Shown in pieces: positions 14,500 through 64,000 of a stretch of 64,000 nucleotides of DNA. The notes under the pieces are model-generated. The model worked only from the letters and a program-made list of their open reading frames with translations. It did no database searches and had not been told where the DNA came from. The DNA is from Narcine bancroftii (taxonomy: Eukaryota): NCBI RefSeq assembly GCF_036971445.1, contig NC_091470.1, forward strand, positions 108,872,001 through 108,936,000, written 5' to 3'. The position numbers and the translations under genes are program-made. How positions within the stretch are numbered: the stretch's first letter is position 1; every line of letters starts with the position of its first letter.

Positions 14500-17400
14500 A
14501 ATGCATTGGTCACCATTGGGCACAATGCATTGGTCACCATTGGGCACAATGACTTGGTCACCATTGGGCACAATGCATTGGTCACCATTGGGCACAATGC
14601 CTTGGTCACCATTGGGCACAATGCATTGTCACCATTGGGCACAATGACTTGGTCACCATTGGGCACAATGACTTGGTCACCATTGGGCACAATGCATTGT
14701 CACCATTGGGCACAATGACTTGGTCAACATTGGGCACAATGCATTGGTCACCATTGGGCACAATGACTTGGTCACCATTGGGCACAATGACTTGGTCAAC
14801 ATTGGGCACAATGCATTGGTCACCATTGGGCACAATGACTTGGTCACCATTGGGCACAATGCATTGGTCACTATTAGGAACAATGCATTGGTCACAATGA
14901 CTTGGTCACCATTGGGCACAAAGACTTGGTCAACATTGGGCACAATGCATTGGTCACCATTGGGCACAATGACTTGGTCACCATTGGGCACAATGCATTG
15001 GTCACTATTAGGAACAATGCATTGGTCACAATGACTTGGTCACCATTGGGCACAATGACTTGGTCAACATTGGGCACAATGCATTGGTCACCATTGGGCA
15101 CAATGCATTGGTCACCATTGGGCACAATGCATTGGTCACTATTAGGAACAATGCATTGGGCACAATGACTTGGTCACCATTGGGCACAATGACTTGGTCA
15201 ACATTGGGCACAATGCATTGGTCACCATTGGGCACAATGACTTGGTCACCATTGGGCACAATGCATTGGTCACTATTAGGAACAATGCATTGGTCACAAT
15301 GACTTGGTCACCATTGGGCACAAAGACTTGGTCAACATTGGGCACAATGCATTGGTCACCATTGGGCACAATGACTTGGTCACCATTGGGCACAATGCAT
15401 TGGTCACTATTAGGAACAATGCATTGGTCACAATGACTCGGTCACCATTGGGCACAATGACTTGGTCAACATTGGGCACAATGCATTGGTCACCATTGGG
15501 CACAATGACTTGGTCACCATTGGGCACAATGCATTGGTCACCATTGGGCACAATTGCTTGGTCACCATTGGGCACAATGACTTGGTCAACATTGGGCACA
15601 ATGCATTGGTCACCATTGGGCACAATGACTTGGTCACCATTGGGCACAATGCATTGGTCACTATTAGGAACAATGCATTGGTCACAATGACTTGGTCACC
15701 ATTGGGCACAAAGACTTGGTCAACATTGGGCACAATGCATTGGTCACCATTGGGCACAATGACTTGGTCACCATTGGGCACAATGCATTGGTCACTATTA
15801 GGAACAATGCATTGGTCACAATGACTTGGTCACCATTGGGCACAATGACTTGGTCAACATTGGGCACAATGCATTGGTCACCATTGGGCACAATGCATTG
15901 GTCACCATTGGGCACAATGCATTGGTCACTATTTGGAACAATGCATTGGGCACAATGACTTGGTCACCATTGGGCACAATGACTTGGTCAACATTGGGCA
16001 CAATGCATTGGTCACCATTGGGCACAATGACTTGGTCACCATTGGGCACAATGCATTGGTCACTATTAGGAACAATGCATTGGTCACAATGACTTGGTCA
16101 CCATTGGGCACAAAGACTTGGTCAACATTGGGCACAATGCATTGGTCACCATTGGGCACAATGACTTGGTCACCATTGGGCACAATGCATTGGTCACTAT
16201 TAGGAACAATGCATTGGTCACAATGACTTGGTCACCATTGGGCACAATGACTTGGTCAACATTGGGCACAATGCATTGGTCACCATTGGGCACAATGACT
16301 TGGTCAACATTGGGCACAATGCATTGGTCACCATTGGGCACAATGCATTGTCACCATTGGGCACAATGACTTGGTAACCATTGGGCACAATGACTTGGTC
16401 ACCATTGGTCACAATGCATTGGTCACCATTGGGCACAATGCATTGGTCACCATTGGGCACAATGCATTGGTCACTATTAGGAACAATCCATTGGGCACAA
16501 TGCATTGTCACCATTGGGCACAATGACTTGGTCACCATTGGGCACAATGACTTGGTCAACATTGGGCACAATGCATTGGTCACCATTGGGCACAATGACT
16601 TGGTCACCATTGGGCACAATGCATTGGTCACTATTAGGAACAATGCATTGGTCACAATGACTTGGTCACCATTGGGCACAAAACTAGGTCAACATTGGGC
16701 ACAATGCATTGGACACCATTGGGCACAATGACTTGGTCAACATTGGGCACAATGCATTGGTCACCATTGGGCACAATGACTTGGTCACCATTGGGCACAA
16801 TGCATTGGTCACTATTAGGAACAATGCATTGGTCACAATGACTTGGTCACCATTGGGCACAAAGACTTGGTCAACATTGGGCACAATGCATTGGTCACCA
16901 TTGGGCACAATGACTTGGTCACCATTGGGCACAATGCATTGGTCACTATTAGGAACAATGCATTGGTCACAATGACTTGGTCACCATTGGGCACAATGAC
17001 TTGATCAACATTGGGCACAATGCATTGGTCACCATTGGGCACAATGACTTGGTCACCATTGGGCACAATGCATTGGTCACCATTGGGCACAATGACTTGG
17101 TCACTATTAGGAACAATGCATTGGGCACAATGCATTGTCACCATTGGGCACAATTACTTGGTCACAATTGGGCACAATGACTTGGTCAACATTGGGCACA
17201 ATGCATTGGGCACCATTGGGCACAATGACTTGGTCACCATTGGGCACAATGCATTGGTCACTATTAGGAAAAATGCATTGGTCACAATGACTTGGTCACC
17301 ATTGGGCACAAAGACTTGGTCAACATTGGGCACAATGCATTGGTCACCATTGGGCACAATGACTTGGTCACCATTGGGCACAATGCATTGGTCACTATTA

Positions 17401-20400
17401 GGAACAATGCATTGGTCACAATGACTTGGTCACCATTGGGCACAATGACTTGGTCAACATTGGGCACAATGCATTGGTCACCATTGGGCACAATGCATTG
17501 GTCACCATTGGGCACAATGCATTGGTCACTATTTGGAACAATGCATTGGGCACAATGCATTGTCACCATTGGGCACAATTGCTTGGTCACCATTGGGCAC
17601 AATGACTTGGTCAACATTGGGCACAATGCATTGGTCACCATTGGGCACAATGACTTGGTCACCATTGGGCACAATGCATTGGTCACTATTAGGAACAATG
17701 CATTGGTCACAATGACTTGGTCACCATTGGGCACAAAGACTTGGTCAACATTGGGCACAATGCATTGGTCACCATTGGGCACAATGACTTGGTCACCATT
17801 GGGCACAATGCATTGGTCACTATTAGGAACAATGCATTGGTCACAATGACTTGGTCACCATTGGGCACAATGACTTGGTCAACATTGGGCACAATGCATT
17901 GGTCACCATTGGGCACAATGCATTGTCACCATTGGGCACAATGACTTGGTAACCATTGGGCACAATGACTTGGTCACCATTGGGCACAATGCATTGGTCA
18001 CCATTGGGCACAATGCATTGGTCACCATTGGGCACAATGACTTGGTCACCATTGGGCACAATGACTTGGTCAACATTGGGCACAATGCATTGGTCACCAT
18101 TGGGCACAATGACTTGGTCACCATTGGGCACAATGACTTGGTCAACATTGGGCACAATGCATTGGTCACCATTGGGCACAATGACTTGGTCACCATTGGG
18201 CACAATGCATTGGTCACTATTAGGAACAATGCATTGGTCACAATGACTTGGTTACCATTGGGCACAAAACTAGGTCAACATTGGGCACAATGCATTGGAC
18301 ACCATTGGGCACAATGACTTGGTCAACATTGGGCACAATGCATTGGTCACTATTAGGAACAATGCATTGGTCACAATGACTTGGTCACCATTGGGCACAA
18401 TGACTTGGTCAACATTGGGCACAATGCATTGGTCACCATTGGGCACAATGACTTGGTCACCTTTGGGCACAATGCATTGGTCACCATTGGGCACAATGAC
18501 TTGGTCACCATTGGGCACAATGCATTGGTCACCATTGGGCACAATGCATTGGTCACCATTGGGCACAATGACTTGGTCACCATTGGGCACAATGCATTGG
18601 TCACTATTAGGAACAATGCATTGGTCACAATGACTTGGTCACCATTGGGCACAAAGACTTGGTCAACATTGGGCACAATGCATTGGTCACCATTGGGCAC
18701 AATGACTTGGTCACCATTGGGCACAATGCATTGGTCACTATTAGGAACAATGCATTGGTCACAATGACTTGGTCACCATTGGGCACAATGACTTGGTCAA
18801 CATTGGGCACAATGCATTGGTCACCATTGGGCACAATGATTTGGTCACCATTGGGCATAATGCATTGGTCACCATTGGGCACAATGACTTGGTCACCATT
18901 GGGCACAATGACTTGGTCAACATTGGGCACAATGCATTGGTCACCATTGGGCACAATGACTTGGTCACCATTGGGCACAATGCATTGGTCACTATTAGGA
19001 ACAATGCATTGGTCACAATGACTTGGTCACCATTGGGCACAATGACTTGGTCAACATTGGGCACAATGCATTTGTCACCATTGGGCACAATGCATTGGTC
19101 ACCATTGGACACAATGCATTGGTCACTATTAGGAACAATGCATTGGGCACAATGCATTGTCACCATTGGGCACAATGACTTGGTCACCATTGGACACAAT
19201 GACTTGGTCAACATTGGGCACAATGCATTGGTCACCATTGGGCACAATGCATTGTCACCATTGGGCACAATGACTTGGTCAACATTGGGCACAATGCATT
19301 GGTCACCATTGGGCACAATGCATTGGTCACTATTAGGAACAATGCATTGGTCACAATGACTTGGTCACCATTGGGCACAAAGACTTGGTCAACATTGGGC
19401 ACAATGCATTGGTCACCATTGGGCACAATGCATTGGTCACTAATAGGAACAATGCATTGGTCACAATGACTTGGTCACCATTGGGCACAATGCATTGGTC
19501 AACATTGGGCACAATGCATTGGTCACCATTGGGCACAATGACTTGGACACCATTGGGCACAATGCATTGTCACCATTGGGCACAATGACTTGGTCAACAT
19601 TGGGCACAATGCATTGGTCACCATTGGGCACAATGCATTGGTCACTATTAGGAACAATGCGTTGGTCACAATGACTTGGTCACCATTGGGCACAATGACT
19701 TGGTCACCATTGGGCACAATGCATTGGTCACCATTGGGCACAATGCATTGGTCACCATTGGGCACAATGCATTGGTCACTATTAGGAACAATGCATTGGG
19801 CACAATGACTTGGTCACCATTAGGCACAATGACTTGGTCACCATTGGGCACAATGCATTGGTCACCATTGGGCACAATGACTTGGACACCATTGGGCACA
19901 ATGCATTGTCACCATTGGGCACAATGACTTAGTCAACATTGGGCACAATGCATTGGTCACCATTGGGCACAATGCATTGGTCACTATTAGGAACAATGCA
20001 TTGGTCACAATGACTTGGTCACCATTGGGCACAAAGACTTGGTCAACATTGGGCACAATGCATTGGTCACCATTGGGCACAATGCATTGGTCACTAATAG
20101 GAACAATGCATTGGTCACAATGACTTGGTCACCATTGGGCACAATGACTTGGTCAGCATTGGGCACAATGCATTGGTCACCATTGGGCACAATGACTTGG
20201 TCACCATTGGGCACAATGACTTGGTCACCATTGGGCACAATGACTTGGTCACCATTGGGCACAATGCATTGGTCACCATTGGGCACAATGACTTGGTCAC
20301 CATTGGGCACAATGACTTGGTCACCATTGGGCACATTGCATTGGTCACTATTAGGAACAATGCATTGGTCACAATGACTTGGTCACCATTGGGCACAATG

Positions 20401-23400
20401 ACTTGGTCACCATTGGGCACAATGCATTGGTCACCATTGGGCACAATGCATTGGTCACTATTAGGAACAATGCATTGGTCACAATGACTTGGTCACCATT
20501 GGGCACAAAGACTTGGTCAACATTGGGCACAATGCATTGGTCACCATTGGGCACAATGCATTGGTCACTAATAGGAACAATGCATTGGTCACAATGACTT
20601 GGTCACCATTGGGCACAATGACTTGGTCAACATTGGGCACAATGCATTGGTCACCATTGGGCACAATGACTTGGACACCATTGGGCACAATGACTTGGTC
20701 ACCATGGGCACAATGACTTGGTCACCATTGGGCACAATGCATTGGTCACCATTGGGCACAATGCATTGGTCACCATTGGGCACAATGACTTGGTCACCAT
20801 TTGGCACATTGCATTGGTCACTATTAGGAACAATGCATTGGTCACAATGACTTGGTCACCATTGGGCACAATGACTTGGTCAACATTGGGCACAATGCAT
20901 TGGTCACCATTGGGCACAATGCATTGTCACCATTGGGCACAATGACTTGGTCAACATTGGGCACAATGCATTGGTCCCCATTGGGCACAATGCATTGGTC
21001 ACTATTAGGAACAATGCATTGGTCACAATGACTTGGTCACCATTGGGCACAAAGACTTGGTCAACATTGGGCACAATGCATTGGTCACCATTGGGCACAA
21101 TGCATTGGTCACTAATAGGAACAATGCATTGGTCACAATGACTTGGTCACCATTGGTCACAATGACTTGGTCAACATTGGGCACAATGCATTGGTCACCA
21201 TTGGGCACAATGACTTGGACACCATTGGGCACAATGCATTGTCACCATTGGGCACAATGACTTGGTCAACATTGGGCACAATGCATTGGTCACCATTGGG
21301 CACAATGCATTGGTCACTATTAGGAACAATGCATTGGTCACAATGACTTGGTCACCATTGGGCACAATGACTTGGTCACCATTGGGCACAATGCATTGGT
21401 CACCATTGGGCACAATGCATTGGTCACCATTGGGCACAATGCATTGGTCACTAATAGGAACAATGCATTGGTCACAATGACTTGGTCACCATTGGGCACA
21501 ATGACTTGGTCAACATTGGGCACAATGCATTGGTCACCATTGGGCACAATGACTTGGACACCATTGGGCACAATGCATTGTCACCATTGGGCACAATGAC
21601 TTGGTCAACATTGGGCACAATGCATTGGTCACCATTGGGCACAATGCATTGGTCACTATTAGGAACAATGCATTGGTCACAATGACTTGGTCACCATTGG
21701 GCACAATGACTTGGTCACCATTGGGCACAATGCATTGGTCACCATTGGGCACAATGCATTGGTCACCATTGGGCACAATGCATTGGTCACTATTAGGAAC
21801 AATGCATTGGGCACAATGACTTGGTCACCATTAGGCACAATGACTTGGTCACCATTGGGCACAATGCATTGGTCACCATTGGGCACAATGACTTGGACAC
21901 CATTGGGCACAATGCATTGTCACCATTGGGCACAATGACTTGGTCAACGTTGGGCACAATGCATTGGTCACCATTGGGCACAATGCATTGGTCACTATTA
22001 GGAACAATGCATTGGTCACAATGACTTGGTCACCATTGGGCACAATGACTTGGTCAACATTGGGCACAATGCATTGGTCACCATTGGGCACAATGACTTG
22101 GTCACCATTGGGCACAATGACTTGGTCACCATTGGGCACAATGACTTGGTCACCATTGGGCACAATGCATTGGTCACCATTGGGCACAATGCATTGGTCA
22201 CCATTGGGCACAATGACTTGGTCACCATTGGGCACATTGCATTGGTCACTATTAGGAACAATGCATTGGTCACAATGACTTGGTCACCATTGGGCACAAA
22301 GACTTGGTCAACATTGGGCACAATGCATTGGTCACCATTGGGCACAATGACTTGGTCACCATTGGGCACAATGCATTGGTCACTATTAGGAACAATGCAT
22401 TGGTCACAATGACTTGGTCACCATTGGGCACAATGACTTGGTCAACATTGGGCACAATGCATTGGTCACCATTGGGCACAATGCATTGGTCACCATTGGG
22501 CACAATGCATTGGTCACTATTAGGAACAATGCATTGGTCACAATGACTTCGTCACCATTGGGCACAATGACTTGGTCAACATTGGGCACAATGCATTGGT
22601 CACCATTGGGCACAATGACTTGGTCACCATTGGGCTCAATGCATTGGTCACCATTGGGCACAATGACTTGGTCACCATTGGGCACAATGCATTGGTCACC
22701 ATTGGGCACAATGCATTGGTCACCATTGGGCACAATGACTTGGTCACCATTGGGCACAATGCATTGGTCACTATTAGGAACTATGCATTGGTCACAATGA
22801 CTTGGTCACTATTGGGCACAATGACTTGGTCAACATTGGGCACAATGCATTGGTCACCATTGGGCACAATGCATTGGTCACCATTGGGCACAATGCATTG
22901 GTCACTATTAGGAACAATGCATTGGTCACAATGACTTGGTCACCATTGGGCACAATGACTTGGTCACCATTGGGCACAATGACTTGGTCACCATTGGGCA
23001 CAATGACTTGGTCAACATTGGGCACAATGCATTGTCACCATTGGGCACAATGACTTGGTCACCATTGGGCACAATGACTTGGTCAACATTGGGCACAATG
23101 CATTGATCACCATTGGGCACAATGCATTGGTCACCATTGGGCACAATGACTTGGTCACCATTGGGCACAATGCATTGGTCACTATTAGGAACAATGCATT
23201 GGTCACAATGACTTGGTTACCATTGGGCACAAAGACTTGGTCAACATTGGGCACAATGCATTGGTCACCATTGGGCACAATGACTTGGTCACCATTGGGC
23301 ACAATGCATTGGTCACTATTAGGAACAATGCATTGGTCACAATGACTTGGTCACCATTGGGCACAATGACTTGGTCAACATTGGGCACAATGCATTGGTC

Positions 23401-26400
23401 ACCATTGGGCACAATGCATTGGTCACCATTGGGCACAATGCATTGGTCACTATTAGGAAGAATGCATTGGTCACAATGACTTGGTTACCATTGGGCACAA
23501 AGACTTGGTCAACATTGGGCACAATGCATTGGTCACCATTGGGCACAATGACTTGGTCACCATTGGGCACAATGCATTGGTCACTATTAGGAACAATGCA
23601 TTGGTCACAATGACTTGGTCACCATTGGGCACAATGACTTGGTCAACATTGGGCACAATGCATTGGTCACCATTGGGCACAATGCATTGGTCACCATTGG
23701 GCACAATGCATTGGTCACTATTAGGAACAATGCATTGGGCACAATGACTTGGTCACCATTAGGCACAATGACTTGGTCACCATTGGGCACAATGCATTGG
23801 TCACCATTGGGCACAATGACTTGGACACCATTGGGCACAATGCATTGTCACCATTGGGCACAATGACTTGGTCAACGTTGGGCACAATGCATTGGTCACC
23901 ATTGGGCACAATGCATTGGTCACTATTAGGAACAATGCATTGGTCACAATGACTTGGTCACCATTGGGCACAATGACTTGGTCAACATTGGGCACAATGC
24001 ATTGGTCACCATTGGGCACAATGACTTGGTCACCATTGGGCACAATGACTTGGTCACCATTGGGCACAATGACTTGGTCACCATTGGGCACAATGCATTG
24101 GTCACCATTGGGCACAATGCATTGGTCACCATTGGGCACAATGACTTGGTCACCATTGGGCACATTGCATTGGTCACTATTAGGAACAATGCATTGGTCA
24201 CAATGACTTGGTCACCATTGGGCACAAAGACTTGGTCAACATTGGGCACAATGCATTGGTCACCATTGGGCACAATGACTTGGTCACCATTGGGCACAAT
24301 GCATTGGTCACTATTAGGAACAATGCATTGGTCACAATGACTTGGTCACCATTGGGCACAATGACTTGGTCAACATTGGGCACAATGCATTGGTCACCAT
24401 TGGGCACAATGCATTGGTCACCATTGGGCACAATGCATTGGTCACTATTAGGAACAATGCATTGGTCACAATGACTTCGTCACCATTGGGCACAATGACT
24501 TGGTCAACATTGGGCACAATGCATTGGTCACCATTGGGCACAATGACTTGGTCACCATTGGGCTCAATGCATTGGTCACCATTGGGCACAATGACTTGGT
24601 CACCATTGGGCACAATGCATTGGTCACCATTGGGCACAATGCATTGGTCACCATTGGGCACAATGACTTGGTCACCATTGGGCACAATGCATTGGTCACT
24701 ATTAGGAACTATGCATTGGTCACAATGACTTGGTCACTATTGGGCACAATGACTTGGTCAACATTGGGCACAATGCATTGGTCACCATTGGGCACAATGC
24801 ATTGGTCACCATTGGGCACAATGCATTGGTCACTATTAGGAACAATGCATTGGTCACAATGACTTGGTCACCATTGGGCACAATGACTTGGTCACCATTG
24901 GGCACAATGACTTGGTCACCATTGGGCACAATGACTTGGTCAACATTGGGCACAATGCATTGTCACCATTGGGCACAATGACTTGGTCACCATTGGGCAC
25001 AATGACTTGGTCAACATTGGGCACAATGCATTGATCACCATTGGGCACAATGCATTGGTCACCATTGGGCACAATGACTTGGTCACCATTGGGCACAATG
25101 CATTGGTCACTATTAGGAACAATGCATTGGTCACAATGACTTGGTTACCATTGGGCACAAAGACTTGGTCAACATTGGGCACAATGCATTGGTCACCATT
25201 GGGCACAATGACTTGGTCACCATTGGGCACAATGCATTGGTCACTATTAGGAACAATGCATTGGTCACAATGACTTGGTCACCATTGGGCACAATGACTT
25301 GGTCAACATTGGGCACAATGCATTGGTCACCATTGGGCACAATGCATTGGTCACCATTGGGCACAATGCATTGGTCACTATTAGGAAGAATGCATTGGTC
25401 ACAATGACTTGGTTACCATTGGGCACAAAGACTTGGTCAACATTGGGCACAATGCATTGGTCACCATTGGGCACAATGACTTGGTCACCATTGGGCACAA
25501 TGCATTGGTCACTATTAGGAACAATGCATTGGTCACAATGACTTGGTCACCATTGGGCACAATGACTTGGTCAACATTGGGCACAATGCATTGGTCACCA
25601 TTGGGCACAATGCATTGGTCACCATTGGGCACAATGCATTGGTCACTATTAGGAAGAATGCATTGGGCACAATGCATTGTCACCATTGGGCACAATGACT
25701 TGGTCACCATTGGGCACAATGACTTGGTCAACATTGGGCACAATTCATTGTCACCATTGGGCACAATGACTTGGTCACCATTGGGCACAATGACTTGGTC
25801 AACATTGGGCACAATGCATTGGTCACCATTGGGCACAATGCATTGGTCACTATTAGGAACAATGCATTGGGCACAATGCATTGTCACCATTGGGCACAAT
25901 GACTTGGTCACCATTGGGCACAATGACTTGGTCAACATTGGGCACAATGCATTGTCACCATTGGGCACAATGACTTGGTCACCATTGGGCACAATGACTT
26001 GGTCAACATTGGGCACAATGACTTGGTCAACATTGGGCACAATGACTTGGTCAACATTGGGCACAATGACTTGGTCAACATTGGGCACAATGACTTGGTC
26101 AACATTGGGCACAATGACTTGGTCACCATTGGGCACAATGACTTGGTCACCATTGGGCACAATGCATTGGTCACCATTGGGCACAATGACTTGGTCAACA
26201 TTGGGCACAATGCATTGGTCACCATTGGGCACAATGACTTGGTCACCATTGGGCACAATGCATTGGTCACCATTGGGCACAATGACTTGGTCACTATTAG
26301 GAACAATGCATTGGGCACAATGACTTGGTCAACATTGGGCACAATGCATTGGTCACCATTGGGCACAATGACTTGGTCACCATTGGGCACAATGACTTGG

Positions 26401-26519
26401 TCACCATTGGGCACAATGACTTGGTCACCATTGGGCACAATGCGTTGGTCACCATTGGGCACAATGACTTGGTCACCATTGGGCACAATGCATTGGTCAC
26501 CATTGGGCACAATGACTTG
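14500..26519. repeat. ~12 kb tandem array, 24-bp monomer TTGGTCACCATTGGGCACAATG(CA/AC), with ~134-bp and larger higher-order periodicities
   Basis: Continuous tandem repeat with sharp edges. Variant monomers include TTGGTCACTATTAGGAACAATGCA, a 14-bp TTGGTCACAATGAC and 22-bp TTGTCACCA forms. ORF-track offsets of 134, 339, 790, 1672 and 1928 bp. Confidence 0.98.
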
Positions 26520-27468
26520 AGCAAATTGACAACAAAGGGGCCTGCATATTGCAGCAGAGAGATGAGCTATTGTGATGACTCACAAACAACACTGATCTTT
26601 TAAACTAATTCGATAACACCCATGACAAACCAAAACTAGCACTAAATGCAGTTTTTTCCTCTCCAAAAATACTTTCTTCCCAATAAAATATTTACAAAAA
26701 AGAAAACCGATCAAAGTCTCTTCCCACCCTTACTTTCATAGCTATACATTTCCATCAATGTGCATTTTTACATACAGAATGAAACATGGAAGTCTGCAGA
26801 CACTGTGATTGTAGTAAAAACACACAGAAAAGCTGGAAGAACTCAGACGGTCTCGCAACGTTTATAGGAGATAAAGGTATATCACTGACATTTCGGGCCT
26901 GAACCTTTCATCAAGGTATAAGCAAAGAACAGGAACGTAAACAAACTGCTCTACAGAGAGAATTTTAAAAATCATCAATAAAGTGCAAAAGTTCTTAAGT
27001 GATTCCCTGAATGAATTTGTCGTTGAGGAGTCTGATGGTGGAGGGGTAGGAGCTGTTCCTGAACCTTGTGGTGCGAGGCTTGTGGCACCTGTACCTCTTT
27101 CCTGATGGATTCTCGTAGGGAATCAAGGATCTTCACCAATCTTATCGAAGGCTTTACAAAAATTCAAATATTCCACATCCACTGGTTTCTTCCTTAGAGC
27201 TCATATCTACAGGCACATGCCTCAAAGAATTCCAGTGGATAAGTCAACCAGGACTTGGCTTTTATAAATCCACATTGACTGTGCTCAATAATATTATTTT
27301 TTCTGTCTCTTGGTATCACATACTTCATGATTAATGCATTTCCCCAACTCCTGGTGTCACTCAGTAGGTCCCTGATTTCTTTCTCCTTCCTTTCTCAAAT
27401 AGAGGGTTCATGTTTATGGCCATCCAAGCTGCAGGAGCCATTCCAGGATTTATCCGTTTTCATGCTCT

Positions 27469-27805: not shown

Positions 27806-30800
27806 ATGAGTGAGCCTGGGATCAGCGCTATAACTGGAAAACTGTCTGAATTCTGGGTTCAGGAGCCGGAGACCTGGTTTGGCCACGTGGAGGCTCAGTT
27901 TCACCTCCGCCAGATTTCATCCAACACTACCAAATTCTACCATGTGGTCGCTGCCCTGGACCAGGCTACCACCAGACGCGTGCTGCACCTCGTTCAGCAC
28001 CCACCCGCCGAAGACAAATATGAGATCATCAAGCGAGTGCTTACCGGATCCCTCGGACTATCCAGACACCAGCGTGCTGCTTGGATGCTACACCTCAACA
28101 CTCTGAGGGATAGGTCCCCGATGGAGCTGATGGACGAGATGCTCGCACTCATGGGTGAGCACACCAACTGCCCACTCTTCGAGTGCATTTTCCTCAACCA
28201 TATGGCTGGGGTCATCTGGCTGCTGCTGGTCCAATAGAGCTTCACTGACCCGAGGAATGTTACCCAGAAAGCCCAAGAGCTATGGCTCACACGATTCCCG
28301 GAGGGCTCAGCGGTCCAGCAGGTCACAAGACACAGGCACAACCACGCCAAGCCTGCCTCTAATGCTGCGGTAGAGCATCTGGCCCCTGAAGGGGCCCCCA
28401 AGAGCATCATCAAGGCCATAGCATCTGCTCCAGGCCTCTGCTTCTACCACCAGCACTGGGGAGCCAAGGCTCGGAAGTGTCATCAGCCCTGCTTGTTCCA
28501 GGGAAACGACCAGGCTGGGTGGCCAAGGACACAACCTCCTCTACCTGTGGGACTCAGTCAGCGGCCGGTGGTTCCTCATCGACACTGGAGCCCAGATCAG
28601 CGTCATCCTGGCCACAGCCATTGAGTCCAGGAACCAACCTCGTCGACCTCCCCTCCGTGCAGCAACGCAACAGCAATCCGCATGTATGGAGACAAGACAG
28701 TCCATATCCAGATCGGCCAAGAAATTTCGCATGGAGGTTCACCGTCTCGTACATCCTGACTGCCATCCTGGGTGCAGACTTCCTCCTCGCACACGGGTTT
28801 CTGGTGGATATTTGAGGTAGGCGCCTGGTGGATGCCCGTACCTTCCAGGCCGTTCGCTTCGACACCTCCCACTGGGAGCATCTGCAGATGGCTACGATCA
28901 GCATGCCCAGAGATGAGTTCCAGCAAATCCTGAATGAGTTCCCGACACTCCTCAATCCACAGTTCTCCACTGCCTCACTGCGCCATGGGGTGTTCCACCA
29001 CATCACACCCAGGGCCCACTGGTTCACGCCATGGCACTCCGGCTCCTGCCTGATAAGCTCCGATGGCAAAAGAGTTTTCGCACCTGTTGGAACTGGGGAT
29101 CATTCAGTGGTCCGACTGCCCATGGGCTTCACTGCTCCACCTGGTCCTGAAAGCCTCCGGCGGCTGACGTCCCTGCGGAGACTATCGACGGCTCAACGAG
29201 GCAACAGTTCCTGACCGTTACCCCATCCCTCACATCCAAGACTTTATGGCCAACCTGCACGGTAAGAGGGTTTTCTCTAAGATTGACCTGGTGCGCGGAT
29301 ATCACCAGATCCCAGTGCACCCTGAGGACATACCCAAGACAGCCATCATCACCCCCTTTGGGTTGTTCAAATTCTCAAGAACACTGCTCAGATCTTCCAG
29401 CGCCTCATGGACTCTGTGGGCAGGGACTTGGATTTAGTCTTTGTTTATTTGGATGACATCCTCGTCGCCAGCAAGAACTGGTCACAACACAAGGCCCACC
29501 TACGCGCCCTTTTCTCCCGGCTGGCCAATTTCGGCCTTACCATCAACCTGGCCAAGTGCCAGTTCAGGAAAGAGTCCATGCAGTTCCTGGGCCATAGCAT
29601 CACAACCGAAGGAGCCATTCCCGCTGCCGCGAAGGTTGCCGCTATCAGGGAGTTCTCACTTTTACAACTGCTTCATCCTGGGATCTGCACGCATCATGCA
29701 GCCCCTATTCACCTTCATCGCAGCCAAGCATAAAATGCTCACTTGGAGTCCAGAAGCCTGCACTGCATTCGAGGCCACCAAGGACGCCTTCGCGAAGGCC
29801 ACCATGCTTGCCCACGCGCACACCGACCTGTATATGACACTCTCTGTCGATGCCTCTCCCACAGCCATCGGTGCCATCCTGGACCAGCAGGTGAATGGAC
29901 ATTGGAAGCCACTGGAATTCTTCAGCTGCCTGCTCCTCCTGCTGGAACGCAAGTATAGTGCTTTCGACCACGAGTTACTGGGCATATACCTGGCGGTGCA
30001 GCATTTCCGCTATTTTTTGGAGGGGAGGACTTTTACCATCTTCACCGACCACAAACCCCTCACCCAGGTGCTCGTGATGGCAAAGGATCCCTGGTCAGCC
30101 TGCCAGCAGTGTCACCTCTCCTTCATGTTGGAGTTTACCACCGACATTCGGCACAAGACGGGGAAGGACAATGTGGTTGCCGATGCATTCTCACGTCCAG
30201 CCATCTGCGCGCTGACACCCAGCCTCGACTTCGATCAGCTCGCCCGGGACCAGAAGTCTGATGAGGAGATGAGGGCCTTCAAGACTGCCATCAAAGGCCT
30301 GCGGTTCTGAGACCTCCCGACTCCAAGTGGTGAAGACACCATCCTGTGCGATATCTCCATGGGCACCGCATGAACAGTGGTTTCCCAGCAGTTGTGCAGG
30401 CTGCGGAAGCAGATCGCGGGCTGAACCAGAACATGCACCCATTGCCAGATACACCAGGGCGCCCGTACAGGAGTTTGAGCACGTCCGGGAACAGTTCAGC
30501 CACATTCACGTGGACATCGTCGGGCTCACCCATTTCCCAGGGCAACTGTTACCTGTTTATGATAGTGGACCGTACCACTCACTGGCCTGAGGCGATCCCA
30601 ATGCCAGATGCCTCCACCAACTCCTGAGCACTATTGCATGGTTGGGTCTCCCGGTTCAGCATCCCAGGTCACCTCACCAGCGATCGGGGTGCCCAGTTCA
30701 CATCTGCACTCTGGGAACAGCTCGCCAACAGGTTGGGGATCCAGCTACACTGCACCACGGCCTACCACCCGCAGGCCAATGGACTGGTCGAACGTCTGCA

Positions 30801-53924: not shown

Positions 53925-56800
53925 TAATCAGGTCTCCCAGAGCTCCCTGCACTCCGAGTACTGCACAAAACTGAAACCTCAAAGATGTGGCTAGTTCTAG
54001 CAAGTAACCATTATAACGCAAAAGAAACAGTTAGAATGTGCTGTGTTGTACTGAGAGATACAAGGTTACAAGGTGCATACTGGCAACTTTGACTGGTCCT
54101 GTTGTCTTTGAAAAGCAACAAAATCTAAGAAGTCCTTCCTTCCCCCCATCCCACCCCCCCCCCCACACCACCCTCATCTCTCTACCAGGCAAAGTGGCTG
54201 AAGAGATGGTCCTTTCCATTCGCGGTCAATGAGAAAACGAAGATGACTGAAAGAAATAAACCAAGAAAATGTTCGACCGCATGAACCCCCACTCTCACCC
54301 ACAGCAGGAAGTTGGGGGTAGCAGGAAGAGGGCTATTTCCCAGATGAGCCACTGAACTAAGGATCCGTCCCTCTCTGGGAGGTTTTCGAGTCCTGTTCCT
54401 CTCTTGACCAAGATCACTGACAATAAATGGTGGGTGAAAGACTGGAGGCTGCAGACACTGACTGTAGTAAACACACCGAATTGCTGGAGGAACTCAGCCG
54501 GTCTCTTCAGCATCTATAGGAGACAAAGACGCATTACTGACATTTCGGGCCTGAGCCCTTCTTCATGGGAAAATCAGAAAAGGCATAAGCAGGATGTATC
54601 AGAAAGTCTCTGAATTCAAACAATGGGGGAAGAATCCAGACCAACAAAAGGTATTAAATAAATATAATAAGGGACTAGGTGGAATTTATCATGTCTGTAT
54701 GAAAGGAGAGAAACTGGGGGATGGGGTAAGAAGGGGGTGGGGGGGGTGGTTTAGTACAGTGTGTCAATTATCTCAGCATTTAAAAGTTCAGATTTATTTT
54801 CAAAGTACATCACATACAATCCTGAGTTTCTTTTCCTGCAAGCACGGCAGAATTACCACTTATTGATGTGCAAAAAAGCTACATTCAAGAAGATGCACAC
54901 ATGTAAACAAATAAAGATTGTAAACAAACTACAACACAGAGAGAAAAAAATCAATGAAGTGCAAAAAGTAAGAGTCTTTAAATGAGTCCGTGATTGAGAT
55001 TTTTGTTGAGGGATCTGAAAGTGGAGGGGGAGCAGCTGTTCCTGAACCTGGTGGTGCGAGTCTTGTAACACCAATACCTCTTTCCTGATGGTAGCAGCGA
55101 GAACCGAGCATGTGCTGGGTGGTGTGGGTCCTTGATGATCGCTGCAGCTCTCTGACGACAGCGTTCCCGTAGATGTTGTCGATGGCGGGGAGGGCTTTGC
55201 TTGTGATGTTGAGGGCATTGTCCACTACCTTTTGCAGGGCTTTCTGCTCAGGGGTACTGGTGTCCCATACCAGACCGTGATGCAGCCGGTCAGCTCGCTT
55301 TCCACCACAAAAAATGGTAACATAACGGTCAGCTCAACGCTGTTACAGCGCCAGTGATCGGGGCCAGTGGTCGAATCTGGCATTGTCTTGAAAGAGTTTG
55401 TACGCTCTCCTTGTGCCTGCATGGGTTTTCCCCGGGGGCTTCAGTTTCCTCCCACCCTTCAAAATGCACCTGGGGTTGTAAGTTAATTGGGTGTAATTGG
55501 CCCGCACAGGCTTGTGGACCCAAAGAGCCTGTTACTGTGCTGGATGTCTAAGTTTTAAAATTCAAATGTTTGTCAAGGTTTCTGATGCCATACCGTATCT
55601 CCACAAATCCTGAGGACGTTGAGGCACTAATGTGCTTTCTTCACAATTTGTCTACATTATAACAGTGGCCACATTTCATAAGCAATTCATTGGTTGTTTT
55701 AGTACCTTGGGATGTGCCAGGGATTGATATAAATACAAGTCTTTCTTTTCCAGAGCCTGGATGGTAACCAGCAGCATCATCTGCCACTAAACTCTGTCCT
55801 CGATACAAAGTATTAGGAACTCCTCCTGATGCACATTGCAACCAGTGTGCTCCAGATTCTGATTGAGAGGATTTTCTGTGTTGCCTTTTATATTGAAGGA
55901 ACGTAGTGGAGTTCCTCGTCGTCTATGGAGAGTCCCCTCTTCAGGACCATCAGTGAAGACCCAGAGCACCAGTGATGGCCCAGGTCAGTCTACATTCCCA
56001 CCTCAGTCTCTGTGCATGTACATTGAGGGGAAGTTTTACAGGGCTGCCTGAGTGGTTCAGCCCAGTCCAGCCAGATGGGACATTACCCACAACAGCCAGG
56101 AGTAAAACACTTCAATCATTAAAGGAAAGGAGGTGCAGTATTCTCTTCCTCAATTACAAAAGTCTCCAACTCAGCTGATCAATGTGGGAGCATTAGATCT
56201 GTACCATACAGACATATTCATAAAAATACCCTTGTTTAATTTTAATGATAGAACATGGTAGGAGGTCCTTCCACCCCATGAAACCCATGCTGCCCAATTA
56301 ATCTAACAATCTCGTATGTTTTGGATGGTGGGAGGAAACCGGAACACTTGGAGGAAACCCACACTGGTCATGGGGAGAAGGTACAAACTCTTTACAGACT
56401 GTGCCAGATTTGAACCAGGGACAGTGATAGCATTGCAATGACCCTGTCAGATTTGGAGGGAAACACGAAAGTCTGTGATTGTCGTAAAAACGCATAGAAA
56501 TGCTGGAGGAACTCAGCCGGTCTTGCAGTGTCCCTAGGAGGTAAGATGTATATAACCGATGTTTTGAGCCTGAACCATGTGGTCTCCGCTACATTGGAGA
56601 GATTGGACACAAAATGGGAGATCACATCGTGAGCACCTTGGGGTCTGTCTGCCGTAACAGCGTGAATCTCCCAGTGGCCACCCATTTCAGTTCCCTGTCC
56701 CATTCCCTTGCTGACATATTTATTCATGGGCTCATGCACTGCCGTTAAACCCACCACCCCCCCACCTCATCTTCTTCCCCCGTCTTCTTTCCTCTAGTTC

Positions 56801-56837
<37 letters not shown>

Positions 56838-56915
56838 TTCAATTTTTAAAAATGTTTTTTTTATTAAACACAATGAAGAAAAGGGAACAAAACTGAAAAA
56901 ACAATATGGCGTATA

Positions 56916-57436
56916 CAGTGAAACCCTGATTTAATGTGATCCAATTTAACACAAAATCGGATATAACATCCTGGATACAGGGCTTGTGGCAGGCCAGCAA
57001 GTGGTGGCACTGTGGAGTTCTAGCCGCCAGGTGCCCCGCAGATCAGCTGGAGACGCACACACCGGCAGCCGCTGGTCGAAGCAGAAGGCCGGGCCGGTCC
57101 GACCGCAGGCGGCTATCGCAGCACAGTGGGTTGTTGTCTAGCTGCAGCATGGACGGGCAATGCGCTCTCTTCCAACATGGCCAGCGCATGGCCAACTGCC
57201 TCAGCTTGTACAGCTGCTGAAGGTTCTACTCCTGTGCAGGGAGCTGATGCCCAAGCAATGCAGCTAGAGTGTGGCCAGGTAGGACTGGGATTCGGTTGAA
57301 ATGGAGGTGAGGCAGGTTGAAACCCTGCTGGTGATGTTCTCGCTGTATATGTGAAACCCTGATTGAGAATAACCTCGCGTTTTTCATGATGCTGCTTTGT
57401 GGATCCAAATGATTGCTTTATAATGGGGTTTCAGTC
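56916..57436. mobile_element. Tigger/pogo-like (Tc1/mariner) non-autonomous element carrying host-gene sequence
   Basis: TA|CAGTGAAACCCTGATTTAA at left, TTATAATGGGGTTTCAGTC|TA at right; extra left-end-like copy at ~57350. Confidence 0.7.
56968..57345 (-). pseudogene. Fragmented LINGO-family (LINGO3-like) LRR/LRRCT coding sequence
   Basis: Collinear minus-strand peptides SENITSRV, CLTSISTESQSYLATL*LHCLGISSL, NLQQLYKLRQL, LAMLEESA, LQLDNNPLCCDSRL, FDQRLPVCASPADLRG and CHKPCIQD, separated by deletions and frameshifts. Confidence 0.8.
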
Positions 57437-57726
57437 TATTAATATAAAACTTCAAACTGTAAAAACTCGACCTCCCTCCACTGCCATGGGTGGAAATGAA
57501 AAAAAAAATCAAAATTATGAAAAACTCCACCTCACCTACTCTAATAAAAAACACAGCTTAATCCTTAATATTTGGTAGTGTTTGGCTCCTACTGTAAATC
57601 AAAAAACAAAGGTAAGACTATATTTCATCTGGAAGAGCGTGTACATCTAATCACATTAAAAACATTTACGTCACATGAAAATAAGACACATATCTTCAAA
57701 TTTCACCGGTAGATCAAATACATGAG

Positions 57727-57964
57727 TGTGATAGTACAGATTCTATCACCAATGTGTATATGTACATATGTACAGATGGTAGTGTAGGATGACTGTGATT
57801 GGCTGAGAGTGTAGCCACACCTACTGGCAGGTCTTAAAATTTGCTCCTAGCCAGACCAGGTCATTCTGGACTGGTCGACCTATTTGTGATATGTTCCAGT
57901 CTTTTAGTTAATAAAATCCTTAGTTTGGATCAACAAGTCTTTGGTTCTTTTGACGTGCATTACA
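57727..57964 (+). mobile_element. Solo LTR (238 bp)
   Basis: TGTGAT...ATTACA termini, ATTGG box, AATAAA near 57910, flanks ATGAG / ATGAT. Confidence 0.75.
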
Positions 57965-59117
57965 ATGATATCTAATTTTTTTTCTAGACTTAAACAGGAC
58001 ACTTTTGGAGGTCTTGAGTCTTTCCATTTGATTTTTCTAGCCAACAATGTAGAGAAGAGCACACCCAATGAACAGGTACAGAAAATCTTCCTATGTCTTG
58101 GTCAATAGCTCCCGACAAAGTAGTTATTGAATTGGGTCATAGCTCCACCCGGATTATAATCGAAAAGGCATTAAAAATTTCTTTCCAATAGTTTTCTATC
58201 TCTCTCTCTCTCTCTCTCTTTTTCTCTCTCCTCTTTCCCCCTGTATCCTTTCACAGAGCCAAAACCAATTCTCATCTTTCCTCTTATCATAACCAATTAA
58301 CATCTTTTCGTCTATTGGTCTGGACTCCTCCCCTTCCCGTTCTTCCCCCTCTCTCCCCAGTCTTAATTCAGCTGCTGCCTGCTTTTTGCTTATGCCTCAG
58401 GCCCGAAATGTCGGTGATATATCTTTACCTCCTATGGATGTTGCGAGACTAGCCAAGTTCCTCCAGCATTTCTGTGTGTTTTTACTGCTGGATATGGAAC
58501 CAAGGCAAGGGGGAGCAGTCATGGGCTTGAGAGCTGAATGGCCTTTCCTTCCTTACCTTCTCTGATATATTCCAAGATGTGTGGGGTTCCAGGGAAGGAG
58601 CAATGAGCCTGGAAACTCACAGATCGAGAATGGGCATGAGGGACAAAAAGGAGCTTTCTCATCGCTGAATGTATTTGCTCCCTGGTCCAGTAAATTCAGT
58701 GACAAAGTAATTGACTCAATGAAGAACCATTTCACCTTGAAGAGTTAAAGAAAGGGCGGAGTCACGTGATGGAGTAGTGGCCGGACGGTGAACTCCAGCC
58801 CTCTCCACAAAGGCACAAAAATAAAAATTAAAGAAAAGTGAGTATAAAGGTGGAAAGAAGATGGCGACGAAAAAAGAAAAATCGAAATCAACGGTAAGAA
58901 GAGAGGAAGAGAAGACAACGGAGGAAGAAGGAGAAGGCCTTACCTGTTCGAAGAGGCCCGCGGTGGAGAGAGAAACCCGCTCCCTCAGGTCGGTAGAAAG
59001 TGGACTACAAAAATGGCTCGCTGAGCCGAGTAAAAGTGCGCAATCGCGCATGCGCATGCAAAAAAACACACCGACGGGAGGGGTGACCAGCTGGGGAGTC
59101 AATCTCCACAGCCGGAA

Positions 59118-60083
59118 ATGACAGCTGCAGAACACCTGCAGCAAGAGGAGAACATAGAAGACAACGAAAACAAGAAAGAAGAGAAGAAAAGGGCAACAAA
59201 GAAACAACAGATGGCCAACCCAGAGGAAGAAGAAGAGGAAGAGGAAGAGTACAGTGAAATAGAAGAAGGGAAAGGCAAGATAAAGGATTTACTTTCTCTT
59301 ATTAAAGAATACATGGAGTCATTTAAAGAATGGCAAGCGCAAGAATTTAATGATTTAAGAAGAAGAATAAACAATACAGAAGAGAAAATGAATAAAATAG
59401 ATATGACCTTAACAGAAATGGGAAAGAGAATGGACAAGATGGAAGAGCAGGAAGCAGCAGTAGAAATGGAGGTAGAGGACTTAAAAAAGAAATTAGAGGA
59501 ATCTAATAAAAAAGTTATAGAGACACAAGAACTGTTAGCTCAGAAAATAGATATAATGGAAAATTATAACAGAAGAAATAACATAAAGATAGTGGGCCTT
59601 AAGGAAGATGAAGAAGGCAAGAATATGAGAGAGTTTATAAAAGATTGGATCCCCAGGATCCTAGGATGTCCAGAACTACAGCAAGAAATGGAAATAGAAA
59701 GGGCACATAGAGCATTGGCCTTTAAACCACAACCACAACAAAAGCCAAGATCTATTTTAGTAAAATTCCTAAGATATTCTACAAGAGAAAAGGTACTGGA
59801 GAAGACAATGGAAAAAGTAAGAGAGGGCAACAAGACACTGGAGTACAAAGGGCAATAAATCTTCATTTATCCAGATATAAGTTTTGAACTCCTGAAGAGG
59901 AGAAAGGAGTTCAATACAGCAAAGGCGATTTTATGGAAGAAAGGGTATAAATTTATACTAAAGCATCCAGCGGTATTGAAAATATTTATTCCAGGACAAC
60001 AAAACAGACTATTCTCGGATCCAGAGGAAGCACGAAAATTTGCAGAACAATTACAAAATAGACTGAGGGATGAAGACATGTAA
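59118..60083 (+). pseudogene. L1 ORF1 with one premature stop
   Basis: ENYNRRNNIKIVGLKE, IERAHR, PRSILVKFL; TAA at 59856-59858, then the frame continues IFIYPDISFELLKRRKEF...EDM*. Confidence 0.9.
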
Positions 60084-60754
60084 CGAGAGTACAAAAGACT
60101 GAGAACTAAAAAGACACATAAGTTTTGAACTCCTGAAGAAGAGAAAGGAGTTCAATACATTGAAAACGATCTTATGGAAAAAAAAACTATTCTCGGATCC
60201 AGAGGAAGCAAGGAAATTTGCAGAACAACTACAAAACAAGCAGAGAGATGAAGATATGTAATAAGAGTAAAAATTACCACGATTTATATGTATGTGGGTA
60301 AAGAGGGTAAAGTATCTGTATTTACATGAATGTATCTGTATTTAGAGGAAAATATAGATAGTATAGACAAGAATTAATAAGGGAAGGAAATGGAATAGAG
60401 GGAATAAGGAGGGAACTAAAAGAGTGACCTTTGTTACATATGAAAAGTGAAATCTTTTCTGGGGGGGGGCTGGGTGGGGGGGGAGTTGCGGTCACTGTAA
60501 AATCAGCTGACGCTTGCGAGTGAATTCGCAAATCCAAATGGAAAGGGGAGATGTGGTTGTCCGACAAGGGATAAAGGACAACTCAGGAGGGGAAGGGGAG
60601 ATTGGGGCTAAAGAAGTTTTAAATAGGAGAATAAGGAAAATGTTTGATGTTTTAGGAATGTTGTCTTATAAAGGGTCAAAACAAGAAAACAGAAAAGGAT
60701 AAGAAGGAAAGGTAATGATGGAGAAATGGAAAGGGAAGATAAACAAAGTATAAA

Positions 60755-63700
60755 ATGGCTACGTTGAACTATATGACTTTAAATATTAATGGAATACATA
60801 ACCAAATTAAAAGGAAGAAACTGCTAAATTTACTGAAAAAAGAAAAAATTGATATAGCATTTGTGCAAGAAACACATTTAACTGAATTGAAGCACAAGAA
60901 ATTAAAGAGAGATTGGGTAGGACACATAACAGCAGCATCGTATAATTCAAAAGCAAGAGGAGTAGCTATATTAATTAGTAAAAATGTGCCATTTAAAATA
61001 GAAGAGGAAATAATAGATCCAGCAGGGAGATATGTAATGATAAAATGTCAGATATATTCGGAGTTTTGGAATCTACTCAATGTATATTCACCTAACGAAG
61101 AAGATCAAAAGTTTATGCAAGATATCTTTTTGAAGGTAGCAGATACGCAAGGGAACATATTAATAGGAGGGGATTTCAACCTGAATTTGGATTCAAATAT
61201 GGACAAAACTGGGAAAAAATTAACAGAAAGAATAAAGTAACCAAATTTATAATTAAATCGATGGAAGAAATGCAACTTTTGGATATATGGAGGAAACAAC
61301 ACCCAAAGGAAAAGGAATATTCATATTACTCGGCTAGACATAAAACATACTCAAGAATAGACCTATTTTTGTTATCAGCTCGTATGCAAGATAGAGTAAG
61401 AAAAACAGAATATAAAGCTAGAATACTATCGGACCATTCACCCTTAATATTGACAGTAAAGTTAGAGGACATCCCTCCAAGAATGTATAGATGGAGATTA
61501 AACCCCATGTTACTTAAAAGGCAGGATTTTAGAGAATTTATTGAAAAACAAATAAAAATGTATTTTGAAATAAATACGGAATCAGTGGAAGATAAGTTTA
61601 TACTATGGGATGCAATGAAAGCATTCATTAGAAGGCAAATAATAAGTTAAGTAACCAAGATGAAGAAGGACTATAATCAGGAAACAGAGCAGTTGGAAAG
61701 GGAAATAGTAAATATAGAAAAAGAATTAGCAATGAAGGAAGATACAACTAAAAGAAGAGAATTGGCGGATAAAAAAATAAAATATGAAACACTACAAACA
61801 TATAAGGTGGAGAAGAATATAATGAAGACAAAACAGAAATATTATGAACTAGGTGAGAAAACGCACAAAATCCTAGCATGGCAGCTTAAGACAGAACAAG
61901 CTAAGAAAATGGTATTGGCATCAAGGAAAAAAGACAAACAAATTACATATAATCCAAAAGAAATTAAGGAAAACTTTAGAGAATTCTATGAACAATTATA
62001 CCGAACTGAAAACGAAGGGAAAGAAGGGAAGATAGAGGAATTTCTAACTAAAATTGAACTACCAAAACTACAAATAGAGGAACAAAATAAATTAACAGAG
62101 CCATTTGGAATAGTAGAAATACAAGAGATAATAAAAAAATTACCAAATAATAAGACACCAGGAGAGGATGGATTCCCAATAGAATTCTACAAAACATTTA
62201 AAGACTTATTAATTCCGGCCCTCCTGGAAGTAATCAACCAGATTGATAAAACACAAAGCTTACCAGATTCATGTAAAACAGCAATAATTACAGTAATACT
62301 AAAGCAAGGGAAAGATCCACTCTCACCAGCGTCATATAGACCAATATCTTTACTTAACACAGATTATAAGATAATAGCTAAACTATTAGCAAACAGATTA
62401 TGTATGTACCGAAAATGGTAAATTTAGACCAAACTGGATTTATCAAAAAAAGACGCACAACAGACAATATTTGTAAATTTATTAACTTAATTCATGCAGT
62501 AGAAGGGAATAAAGCACCTACAGTAGCAGTTGCTTTAGACGCAGAGAAGGCCTTTGACAGAGTAGAATGGAATTATTTGTTCAAAGTATTGCAAAAATTC
62601 AGTTTACCGGAGAAGTATATTAATTGGATTAAAGCATTATATAAGGGACCGTTAGCGAAAGTGACAGTAAATGGACATGTATCAAAGCAATTTAACTTAA
62701 GCAGGTCAACATGGCAGGGATGCCCACTATCACCTTTATTGTTTGCGTTAGCTATAGAACCACTAGCAGAATTGATAAGAACAGATAATAATATAAAAGG
62801 AATAAAAATAAAAGACAAGGAATATAAAATCAGTTTATTTGCGGATGATATTATAGAGTACTTAACAGAAGCAGAACTATCAATAAAAGAATTATATAAG
62901 AAATTGAAGGAACATGGAGAAGTGTCGGGTTACAAGATAAACGTAAATAAAAGTGAAGCAATGCCTATGAATAATGCGGATTTCTCAAAATTTAAGAAGG
63001 AATCACCATTTAGATGGCAAATGCAAGCAATAAGATACCTAGGTGTACAAATAAACAAAAATCTCGGCCAACTATATAAACTCAATTATTATCCACTAAT
63101 GAAAAAAATTACAGGACGATTTAGAGCATTGGAAATATTTACCACTAACACTAATAGGAAGGATAAACTGTATTAAAATGAACATTTTTCCAAGGATATT
63201 ATACTTATTTCAGGCATTGCCAATACAACTGACAGAGAAATTCTTCAAGGAGTTAAAGAAAATAATAAGGAAATTTTTATGGAGGGGGGGAAACCGAGGA
63301 TAGCACTAGATAAATTAACAGAATGGTATAAACAAGGAGGCTTACAACTGCCAAACTTTAAAAATTATTATAGAGCCGCACAATTAAGATACCTATCAGA
63401 TTTTTATCAAACAAGGGAAAAGCCAGATTGGACCAGATTAGAATTAGATAAAATAGGGGAAAAGATACCTGAACACATATTATATAAATGGGATGAAAAA
63501 TTGGTATAACATAGAAGTTCTCCAGTATTACATCATCTCCTCAATATTTGGAAGAAGATTCATGTAGAAAGAAATAAAACAAATTATCAATTACCAAAAC
63601 TAATATTGACGCAAAACAAGTTACTCCCTTTTACAATAGATAACCTTTCCTTTAGAGAATGGGAAAAAAAAGGGATTAAAAGAATAGAAAATTGTTTTTC

Positions 63701-64000
63701 AGGAAATAGATTCTTATCCTTTGAACAAATGAAAGATAAGTACAATATAACTCAAGATACAGCGCTGGCATATTACCAATTGAGATCCTACTTGAAGGAT
63801 AAATTAGGAAGCAGTTTGAGTTTGCCAGAGGGTAGTAACCTTGAATATGTGATTACAGATACAATGATAATCAAAAGATTTATAACAAATATGTATATTA
63901 AACTGCAAGAAAAGGAGAATGAGGAAACAAATGGTAAAACTAAACAAAAATGGGAACAAGATTTAAATATAAAGATAAAAAAGGAAACATGGGAGAAGTT
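60755..64000 (+). pseudogene. L1 ORF2 (endonuclease-RT), disrupted
   Basis: TLNINGI, VQETH, GGDFN, SRID, LSDHSP; KTPGEDG, YRPISLLN, LDAEKAFD, QGCPLSP, FADD, YLGV. Frameshifts near 61215, 62400, 63110 and 63280; stop at 61648. Confidence 0.92.

Follow-up and report, generated by a model that had tools for sequence, protein, structure and literature searches.

The window analysed here, a stretch of 64,000 nt of Narcine bancroftii DNA, contains a 521-bp element (56916-57436) that reads as two transposon-type ends around a GC-rich interior (Table 1). The TA-flanked inverted ends by which a sequence-only reading had first recognized it are both present, and the boundaries they give agree with the contig joints and loose ends considered below. 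As inverted repeats the ends are imperfect; 15 of 24 letters pair, which was the best value among 1,000 downstream positions (next best, 12), and the gapped end-pairing score was reached by 14 of 500 shuffles. The right end is decayed, two of its three outermost letters differing from the left end. Between the arms, 56968-57338 (371 bp) has a GC content of 60%, compared with 33% and 41% in the left and right arms and 38% and 32% in the 200-bp flanks; the earlier description of a GC-rich island in AT-rich DNA thus holds for the island and its immediate surroundings, but not for the window as a whole (45% GC). Neither a second copy of the element nor a further transposon end of the same pattern was found within the 64-kb window and, as the sequence-only reading had it, the element is invisible in the ORF track, there being no ORF of 120 aa over it.

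Table 1. Features of the element and of the host repeat around it (positions of the window).
Feature	Position	Strand	Basis
Host repeat to the left of the element, LINE 3' tail-like with A-run and poly(A) signal	56850..56913	-	Depth; inspection
TA, left copy of target duplication	56914..56915	.	Sequence; joints across the element in paralogous host repeats
Left arm: TIR of ~24 nt and two subterminal copies of a 7-nt core	56916..56967	+	Common to elements with other flanks, some with other interior
LINGO (LINGO3-type) coding relic, 378 bp	56968..57345	-	Protein and DNA chain alignments
Inner end-like motif: exact 14-letter copy of 56918-56931 behind a TA-rich spacer	57346..57364	+	Left-end orientation; joined to relic in other contigs
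Right arm including right TIR (57413-57436), outermost letters decayed	57365..57436	-	15/24 pairing; boundary from joints
TA, right copy of target duplication	57437..57438	.	Sequence; joints
Host repeat beyond the right end, 3' untranslated-like	57439..57720	-	Depth 107-1,465 (X4, 57440-57560); 57561-57720 by inspection

The interior had been proposed to be a patchwork of a LINGO gene on the strength of six short peptides, all of which were recovered on the minus strand in the claimed order, across three frames. In ordinary searches the LINGO likeness is weak or missing, but it rises far above chance once frameshifts and long deletions are allowed. Comparison of single minus frames with the PDB and Pfam did not find LINGO, and word-index searches with single frames returned none among 60 and none among 34 candidates at E 10. 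Two matches in a library of 1.84 billion were dismissed as spurious, both being to long repetitive proteins with 15-22 stretches, and the proximity of one 60-aa frame to LRR clusters in the Atlas (0.89) is a lead only. With tblastn, 20 of 122 LINGO proteins gave E < 0.001 in the element and 5 of 122 did so elsewhere in the window; a LINGO profile ranked the tile of the element fourth, behind satellite tiles.

References for a more tolerant comparison consisted of these 122 proteins, for which a quick tree of 70 (52 near-redundant bird rows being dropped) served as a lineage overview only, together with two genes, L001 and L002, obtained by a degenerate motif scan of metagenome contigs; two bacterial motif matches, L003 and L004, were left out. 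None of the references was recognized as coming from the lineage of the host. L001 and L002 are vertebrate LINGO genes present in the metagenome collection as host DNA, and the 605-aa product of L001 matches the solved structure of LINGO1 (4OQT) at E 2e-202 in the PDB and clusters with LINGO3-named proteins. When deletions and frameshifts were tolerated, all 122 LINGO proteins scored 112-176 against the element (median 138); the shuffled maxima, 88 and 91, were measured for two of the 122, P0046 and P0004. For P0004, which was not picked by score, the value was 152; 300 dinucleotide shuffles averaged 65 (sd 8.7) and peaked at 91, the maximum over 300 other window tiles was 105, the opposite strand gave 56 and the reversed protein 67. 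The best protein, P0046 from Xenopus, reached 176 against a shuffle maximum of 88 and a window-tile maximum of 96 (opposite strand, 51; reversed protein, 66), and the corresponding z values were 10 (P0004) and 13.7 (P0046). Alignment of DNA chains gave 165 for L001 against a maximum of 86 in 60 codon shuffles, and 84 against 71 for L002. The protein-search check proposed for the LINGO claim thus had a divided outcome, plain searches being weak or silent and the deletion-tolerant alignment lying well above chance; with chain alignments this far above shuffles, the interior is, as judged from sequence, LINGO-derived host coding DNA.

The aligned pieces are colinear and correspond to LINGO3 residues ~87-95, 104-106, 187-198, 201-230, 332-341, 347-367, 371-398 and 402-413, such that the relic represents in 378 bp some 990 bp of LINGO coding DNA (residues ~87-416), with frameshifts and stops present. 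The pieces at residues ~87-95 and 104-106 lie beyond those first read and extend the relic to 57345, the edge of the inner end-like motif; the LINGO relic lies within both ends of the element, and does not run outside them as it might had two small elements landed beside a pseudogene. Four terminal pieces were rejected as chance: the three that close the L001 DNA chain (codons 496-593) and the one that closes the protein chain (530-537). By hand count, 50 of 87 residues are identical to LINGO3 (P0004) and 42 of 87 to LINGO1 (4OQT), the only paralogues compared, and the captured paralogue is likely to be LINGO3.

How the element came to lie where it does was approached through contigs from four public sequencing runs on the same organism (X1, X2, X4 and X6), which were aligned to 56840-57560 at 80% likeness; X2 and X4 represent one sample, possibly the source of the window, and X1 and X6 are putatively RNA. 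Of the 139 substitutions, 66 indels, 51 joints, 368 loose ends and 1,164 pieces, the results concern 40, 12, 15, 24 and 32, respectively. Joints leading from 56907 directly to 57437, with a short TA-rich stretch between, were seen in at least seven contigs of X4, at least seven of X2 and at least one of X1, and seven further joints among those listed link 56899-56907 to 57436-57444. The flanks belong to a high-copy repeat, the summed depth in X4 rising to 11,684 on the left and 1,465 on the right against 7.4 for the contig of the locus; right-side pieces of this repeat are, among those listed, 83-89% alike. It may be the tail of an L1; its portion at 57961-58200 found no match in Pfam or the PDB. 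Since all 521 bp are missing from these paralogues of the host repeat, both boundaries are fixed and separate elements beside a pseudogene are disfavoured: the element was inserted as one unit at a TA in the host repeat. The empty sites in question are paralogous host-repeat copies, as distinct from orthologous loci. Inside the same host repeat, at 57727-57962, lies a TG...CA stretch of ~240 bp with a near 5-bp duplication which, by inspection, is solo LTR-like.

The sequence-only reading would have been undermined by a single-copy relic, which this is not. At the best-covered sites of the insert (57195, 57198, 57228, 57254 and 57296), a variant letter occurs in 20-27 contigs of X4 and 14-24 of X2, and the contigs covering parts of the relic in X4 are ~87% identical to it. 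Among the listed pieces, the 14 from the insert are 83-94% alike (pooled, 87%), those from the left arm 89% and those from the host repeat 86%, so that the family is old, roughly of the same age as the host repeat. The junctions between arm and cargo recur as well. Ten contigs of X2 carry arm-like letters before 56969, one contig in each DNA run (X2, X4) spans arm and insert with eight extra letters at the junction, and the relic is joined to the inner motif in contigs covering 57203-57359 (X2, X4) and 57276-57357 (X1, X6). As these contigs cross the large gaps of the relic and the junctions of arm and insert, they are not simply LINGO genes.

The left arm is also found in other company. Unrelated letters precede 56913 in 14 contigs of X4 and 16 of X2, agreement among the left flanks being 0.43-0.48, and eight contigs of X2 continue the left arm with a different interior behind 56966; with other flanks and other interiors, the arm belongs to a wider family, and the mixed left flanks may alternatively come from arm-sharing relatives without LINGO. 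In X4 the ratio of summed depth to locus depth starts at ~20 where left arm and insert meet, drops to 5-8 in the middle, climbs to 30-80 over 57190-57314, and then falls to ~10 around the inner motif and to ~4 in the right arm. Summed depth does not equal copy number, and "tens of copies" is a rough estimate. Coverage peaks at 57190-57239, with about three times the depth of the left junction, and some copies may be arranged otherwise, given this uneven depth. The right arm is thinly covered (depth 31 against 7.4 at 57365-57389 in X4), and two contig types stop matching at 57357-57359 with 890-1,700 letters remaining, perhaps because sub-families have different right arms. Among the 32 of 1,164 pieces, where contigs are short, only the contig of the locus itself spans both arms, and a second copy in full length did not appear. 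A deep contig of X1 (record 1, 3,588 nt) and X6 (record 26), with depths of 57 and 44, matches 56913-56967 and has another flank and another interior, followed inward for up to 2.6 kb; it is a candidate for an autonomous partner or for further cargo.

These observations bear on a reading without movement as a unit, in which small elements lie beside a decayed LINGO pseudogene or the whole was spread by the LINE-like host repeat or by segmental duplication. The pairing of only 15 of 24 letters between the ends, the poor match of other contigs to the right arm and the position of the element within a retro-element-like tail would all suit it. It is very unlikely, however, given that host-repeat paralogues without all 521 bp join at TA, that left ends have mixed flanks, and that arm/cargo junctions on both sides recur in contigs 10-17% different.

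The direction in which the copies differ is informative of their descent. When the 30 listed substitutions of the insert were applied together, the mean LINGO3 score rose by 41, whereas random substitutions matched in type shifted it by -39 +/- 12, none of 120 trials reaching the observed value; applied singly, 15 raised the score, 7 lowered it and 8 left it unchanged (counting only shifts of at least one point, 9 raised it and 2 lowered it). Letters of other contigs thus shift the relic towards LINGO3: LINGO DNA is the ancestor of the family, decay has gone further in this copy, and the LINGO origin of the insert is upheld on a second line. CpG decay as the main cause of the differences was not supported, 10 of 21 transitions restoring a CpG compared with an expected 40% (p 0.31). 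With its stops, frameshifts and mismatched right end, this copy is likely immobile and makes no protein. It shows no sign of function: no Rfam match was obtained in 54,000-60,000, and no unusual fold was found (z -1.27). Captured fragments are described as yielding siRNAs against their donor genes in plants (PMC12187468, in its available text), and the relic could by analogy give rise to small or antisense RNA directed at LINGO3, or else serve as a regulatory element. Such retention for function is most improbable, however, for an insert that has no open frame, that in this copy decays away from LINGO3, and whose divergence from other copies is about that of the host repeat (87% vs 86%).

Most of the cargo loss is explained by two large deletions, of ~240 and ~300 nt, to which several small ones are added. 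Both are shared: the 300-nt deletion is crossed by a contig covering 57121-57321, and the 240-nt deletion by those covering 57203-57359 and 57276-57357, with only 3-12 gap letters. Together with the left junction, which recurs likewise, they provide the common junctions and deletions that the sequence-only reading had asked of other copies. Smaller differences divide the contigs. Those over 57235-57321 have 96 letters against 87 here, matching a 9-nt deletion of this copy, and a 2-nt indel at 57233 separates at least six contigs of X4 and at least five of X2, in which two letters are missing, from the remainder. Among the joints listed, four appear to skip the middle of the element (56997 to 57181, and 57007 to 57188, 57192 or 57276). 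This distribution fits early large deletions, amplification and then further loss in sub-lineages; the serial internal deletions that had been postulated accordingly have indirect support, the large gaps being common to the copies and the small ones apparently unshared. An imperfect direct repeat of 11 nt (57176-57197) lies at the junction of the 300-nt deletion and is possibly a repair scar.

Stepwise trimming has a rival in a single patchy repair, by which a broken transposon was filled with ordered short patches of LINGO3 through repeated template switching, so that a long intermediate never existed. Animal Pack-TIRs form mainly by microhomology-based filling of gaps (PMC8277862, in its available portions); moreover, the two large gaps are common to all copies seen, and the 11-nt direct repeat at the 300-nt junction is of the sort that end-joining repair can leave. 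Against this, every piece is in order and on one strand, and other contigs seem to keep eight letters at the left junction and nine within 57235-57321 while others skip more, differences which imply that at least the small deletions were later and separate. We regard an origin of the patchwork in one repair event as unlikely, although for the two large gaps it is conceivable.

With respect to its class, the element is supported by its sequence as a Pack-type element that is old and present in several copies; its TA target and short ends place it in the Tc1/mariner/pogo group. The label "Tigger" is presumptive, being suggested by end motifs. Members of the pogo superfamily are described as having a TA duplication and ends of up to 40 bp (PMC7386202, in the text available); both features are present here, and both are also features of Tc1/mariner. 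No Pfam transposase was detected in the three minus frames and the interior is accounted for by LINGO, so that the element is non-autonomous. Patterns of its junctions and ends gave no matches in the metagenome, genome and viral collections. In possessing TIRs the element agrees with the general Pack-TYPE / Pack-TIR definition, to the extent given in the available text (PMC12187468), and the proposal that it is a Pack-type capture of host coding DNA is strengthened by the finding of a LINGO-derived insert within the ends, in many copies, and absent from the host-repeat paralogues.

Comparison with known systems draws on the available parts of the sources cited. Tan et al. (2021) reported 370 Pack-TIRs in 100 animal genomes, of which 4 of 281 unique ones were multicopy (PMC8277862); that survey concluded that Pack-TIRs in animals are scarce, for the most part present once only and seldom mobilized by transposition, and those in several copies tend towards GC-rich cargo (PMC8277862). 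The multicopy cases, exemplified by Pack-hAT-N8_XT with CAPSL in frog and Ssk-FB4 in fly, resemble the present element in having a GC-rich host cargo of a few hundred bases between TIRs, a target duplication and several copies (PMC8277862). They differ in copy number, with 3-5 copies in the examples and at least 20 contig variants here, and in their cargo, which here amounts to ~38% of the donor span, is derived from a coding exon and is old (~87% alike). To pass the filters of that survey, cargo had to measure 80-120% of its donor and be 90% identical to it (PMC8277862), whereas the cargo here is 378 of ~990 nt relative to LINGO3 orthologues and would fall outside them. The plant Pack-MULE and Pack-CACTA elements are likewise non-autonomous TIR elements that carry gene fragments and are amplified by transposition (PMC12187468, PMC6379663); the present element is unlike them in its TA target, short ends, superfamily and vertebrate host, and plant Pack-TYPE elements carry fragments of several genes where this one carries ordered pieces of one donor gene. 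With pogo/Tigger-type MITEs it shares the TA duplication, ends of up to 40 bp, small size and lack of coding capacity (PMC7386202), and it departs from them in an interior that is host gene and not transposase remnant. A LINGO-carrying transposon, or multicopy Pack-TIRs of cartilaginous fish, were not encountered in the literature covered, which took in few subscription journals and had repeat databases outside its scope; the word "shark" is absent from the main text of PMC8277862, and its supplements may list cases from cartilaginous fish.

The inner end-like motif raises the question of how the cargo was first enclosed. An extra copy resembling the left end had been noticed near 57350, and 57351-57364 is indeed an exact 14-letter copy of 56918-56931 in the same orientation; with up to two mismatches allowed, the window has no third occurrence of the motif. 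The element could be composite, in that two elements in direct orientation lay in or beside LINGO3, 57346-57436 being the remnant of the right one, and the outer ends mobilized the DNA between them. Several facts point this way: the 14 identical letters stand in left-end orientation right at the cargo boundary with a TA before them, and the junction of relic and inner motif recurs in other contigs. A Tyr codon of the donor as the TA target was considered and rejected, as residue 87 of LINGO3 is never Tyr in the 122 sequences; the TA is hence not LINGO-coded, which again favours a composite. Conversely, the match to the left end extends for only 14-16 letters before the sequences diverge, and the fold of the 88-bp module does not stand out from that of shuffles (z -0.23). 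Right arms of Tigger-like MITEs may also normally contain inner copies of the end core in inverted orientation. On balance we hold a composite origin to be possible but doubtful; capture by two elements is a route described for Pack-CACTA in Arabidopsis (PMC6379663, in its accessible portions).

Taken together, the locus is best read, with a probability of roughly 0.8, as an old multicopy non-coding element with transposon-type ends around a deletion-riddled piece of LINGO, likely LINGO3, that was likely spread by a transposase of the Tc1/mariner/pogo type supplied from outside. In a first step, at least ~1 kb of GC-rich LINGO3 coding exon would have become enclosed between the left and right ends of a TA-targeting transposon, either by gap repair or through two neighbouring elements. 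Two large deletions would then have removed most of the cargo early, since other copies share them. To judge from the differing flanks and the empty sites, the shortened element would next have transposed to tens of places, while smaller deletions appear to have continued in sub-lineages and produced a series of shorter forms. The last step can be read at the locus itself, where this copy landed at a TA in a high-copy host repeat and later decayed. The cargo was likely a passenger, since transposition depends on the ends alone, and a reduced length likely makes an element more mobile.

Host coding DNA that has been captured, shrunken and spread has rarely been reported in animals. Here, coding-exon cargo in tens of copies would escape BLAST, Pfam and HMMER because of its deletions, and it illustrates what the filters of the survey by Tan et al. 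would miss. The copies would give a datable series of a transposon trimming its captured cargo. Composite capture, for which the descriptions to date come from plants, could be tested directly in a vertebrate by means of the inner end-like motif. More speculatively, Tigger-like MITE families of this vertebrate lineage might be built from captured host exons so compressed that standard searches no longer recognize them, of which this family, with its graded deletion series and composite inner end, would be one; we consider this conceivable rather than probable. If it were true, TIR transposons of animals would often capture and amplify genes, and existing counts would be too low, since cargo with deletions does not pass the published filters.

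The remainder of the window is rich in other repeats. Its SINE and LINE tails may indicate a cartilaginous fish, and both the LINGO cargo and the ORF1-like protein described below point to a vertebrate. From 14500 to 26530 extends a 12-kb satellite of 24-nt units with higher periods of 48 and 134 nt, which matches itself at ~63% on the opposite strand and gives weak false LRR matches. At 29438-30310 lies the RNase H domain of a reverse transcriptase of the LTR-retrotransposon type. Between 50000 and 53200, the skew of G over C is 0.4-0.7 and a stop-free frame of 258 aa without a Pfam match is found, likely as part of a simple repeat. Finally, the plus strand of 58800-64000 holds an L1-like element with an ORF1-like protein and pieces of endonuclease and reverse transcriptase, broken into several frames; the nearest clusters to its ORF1-like protein are chordate.
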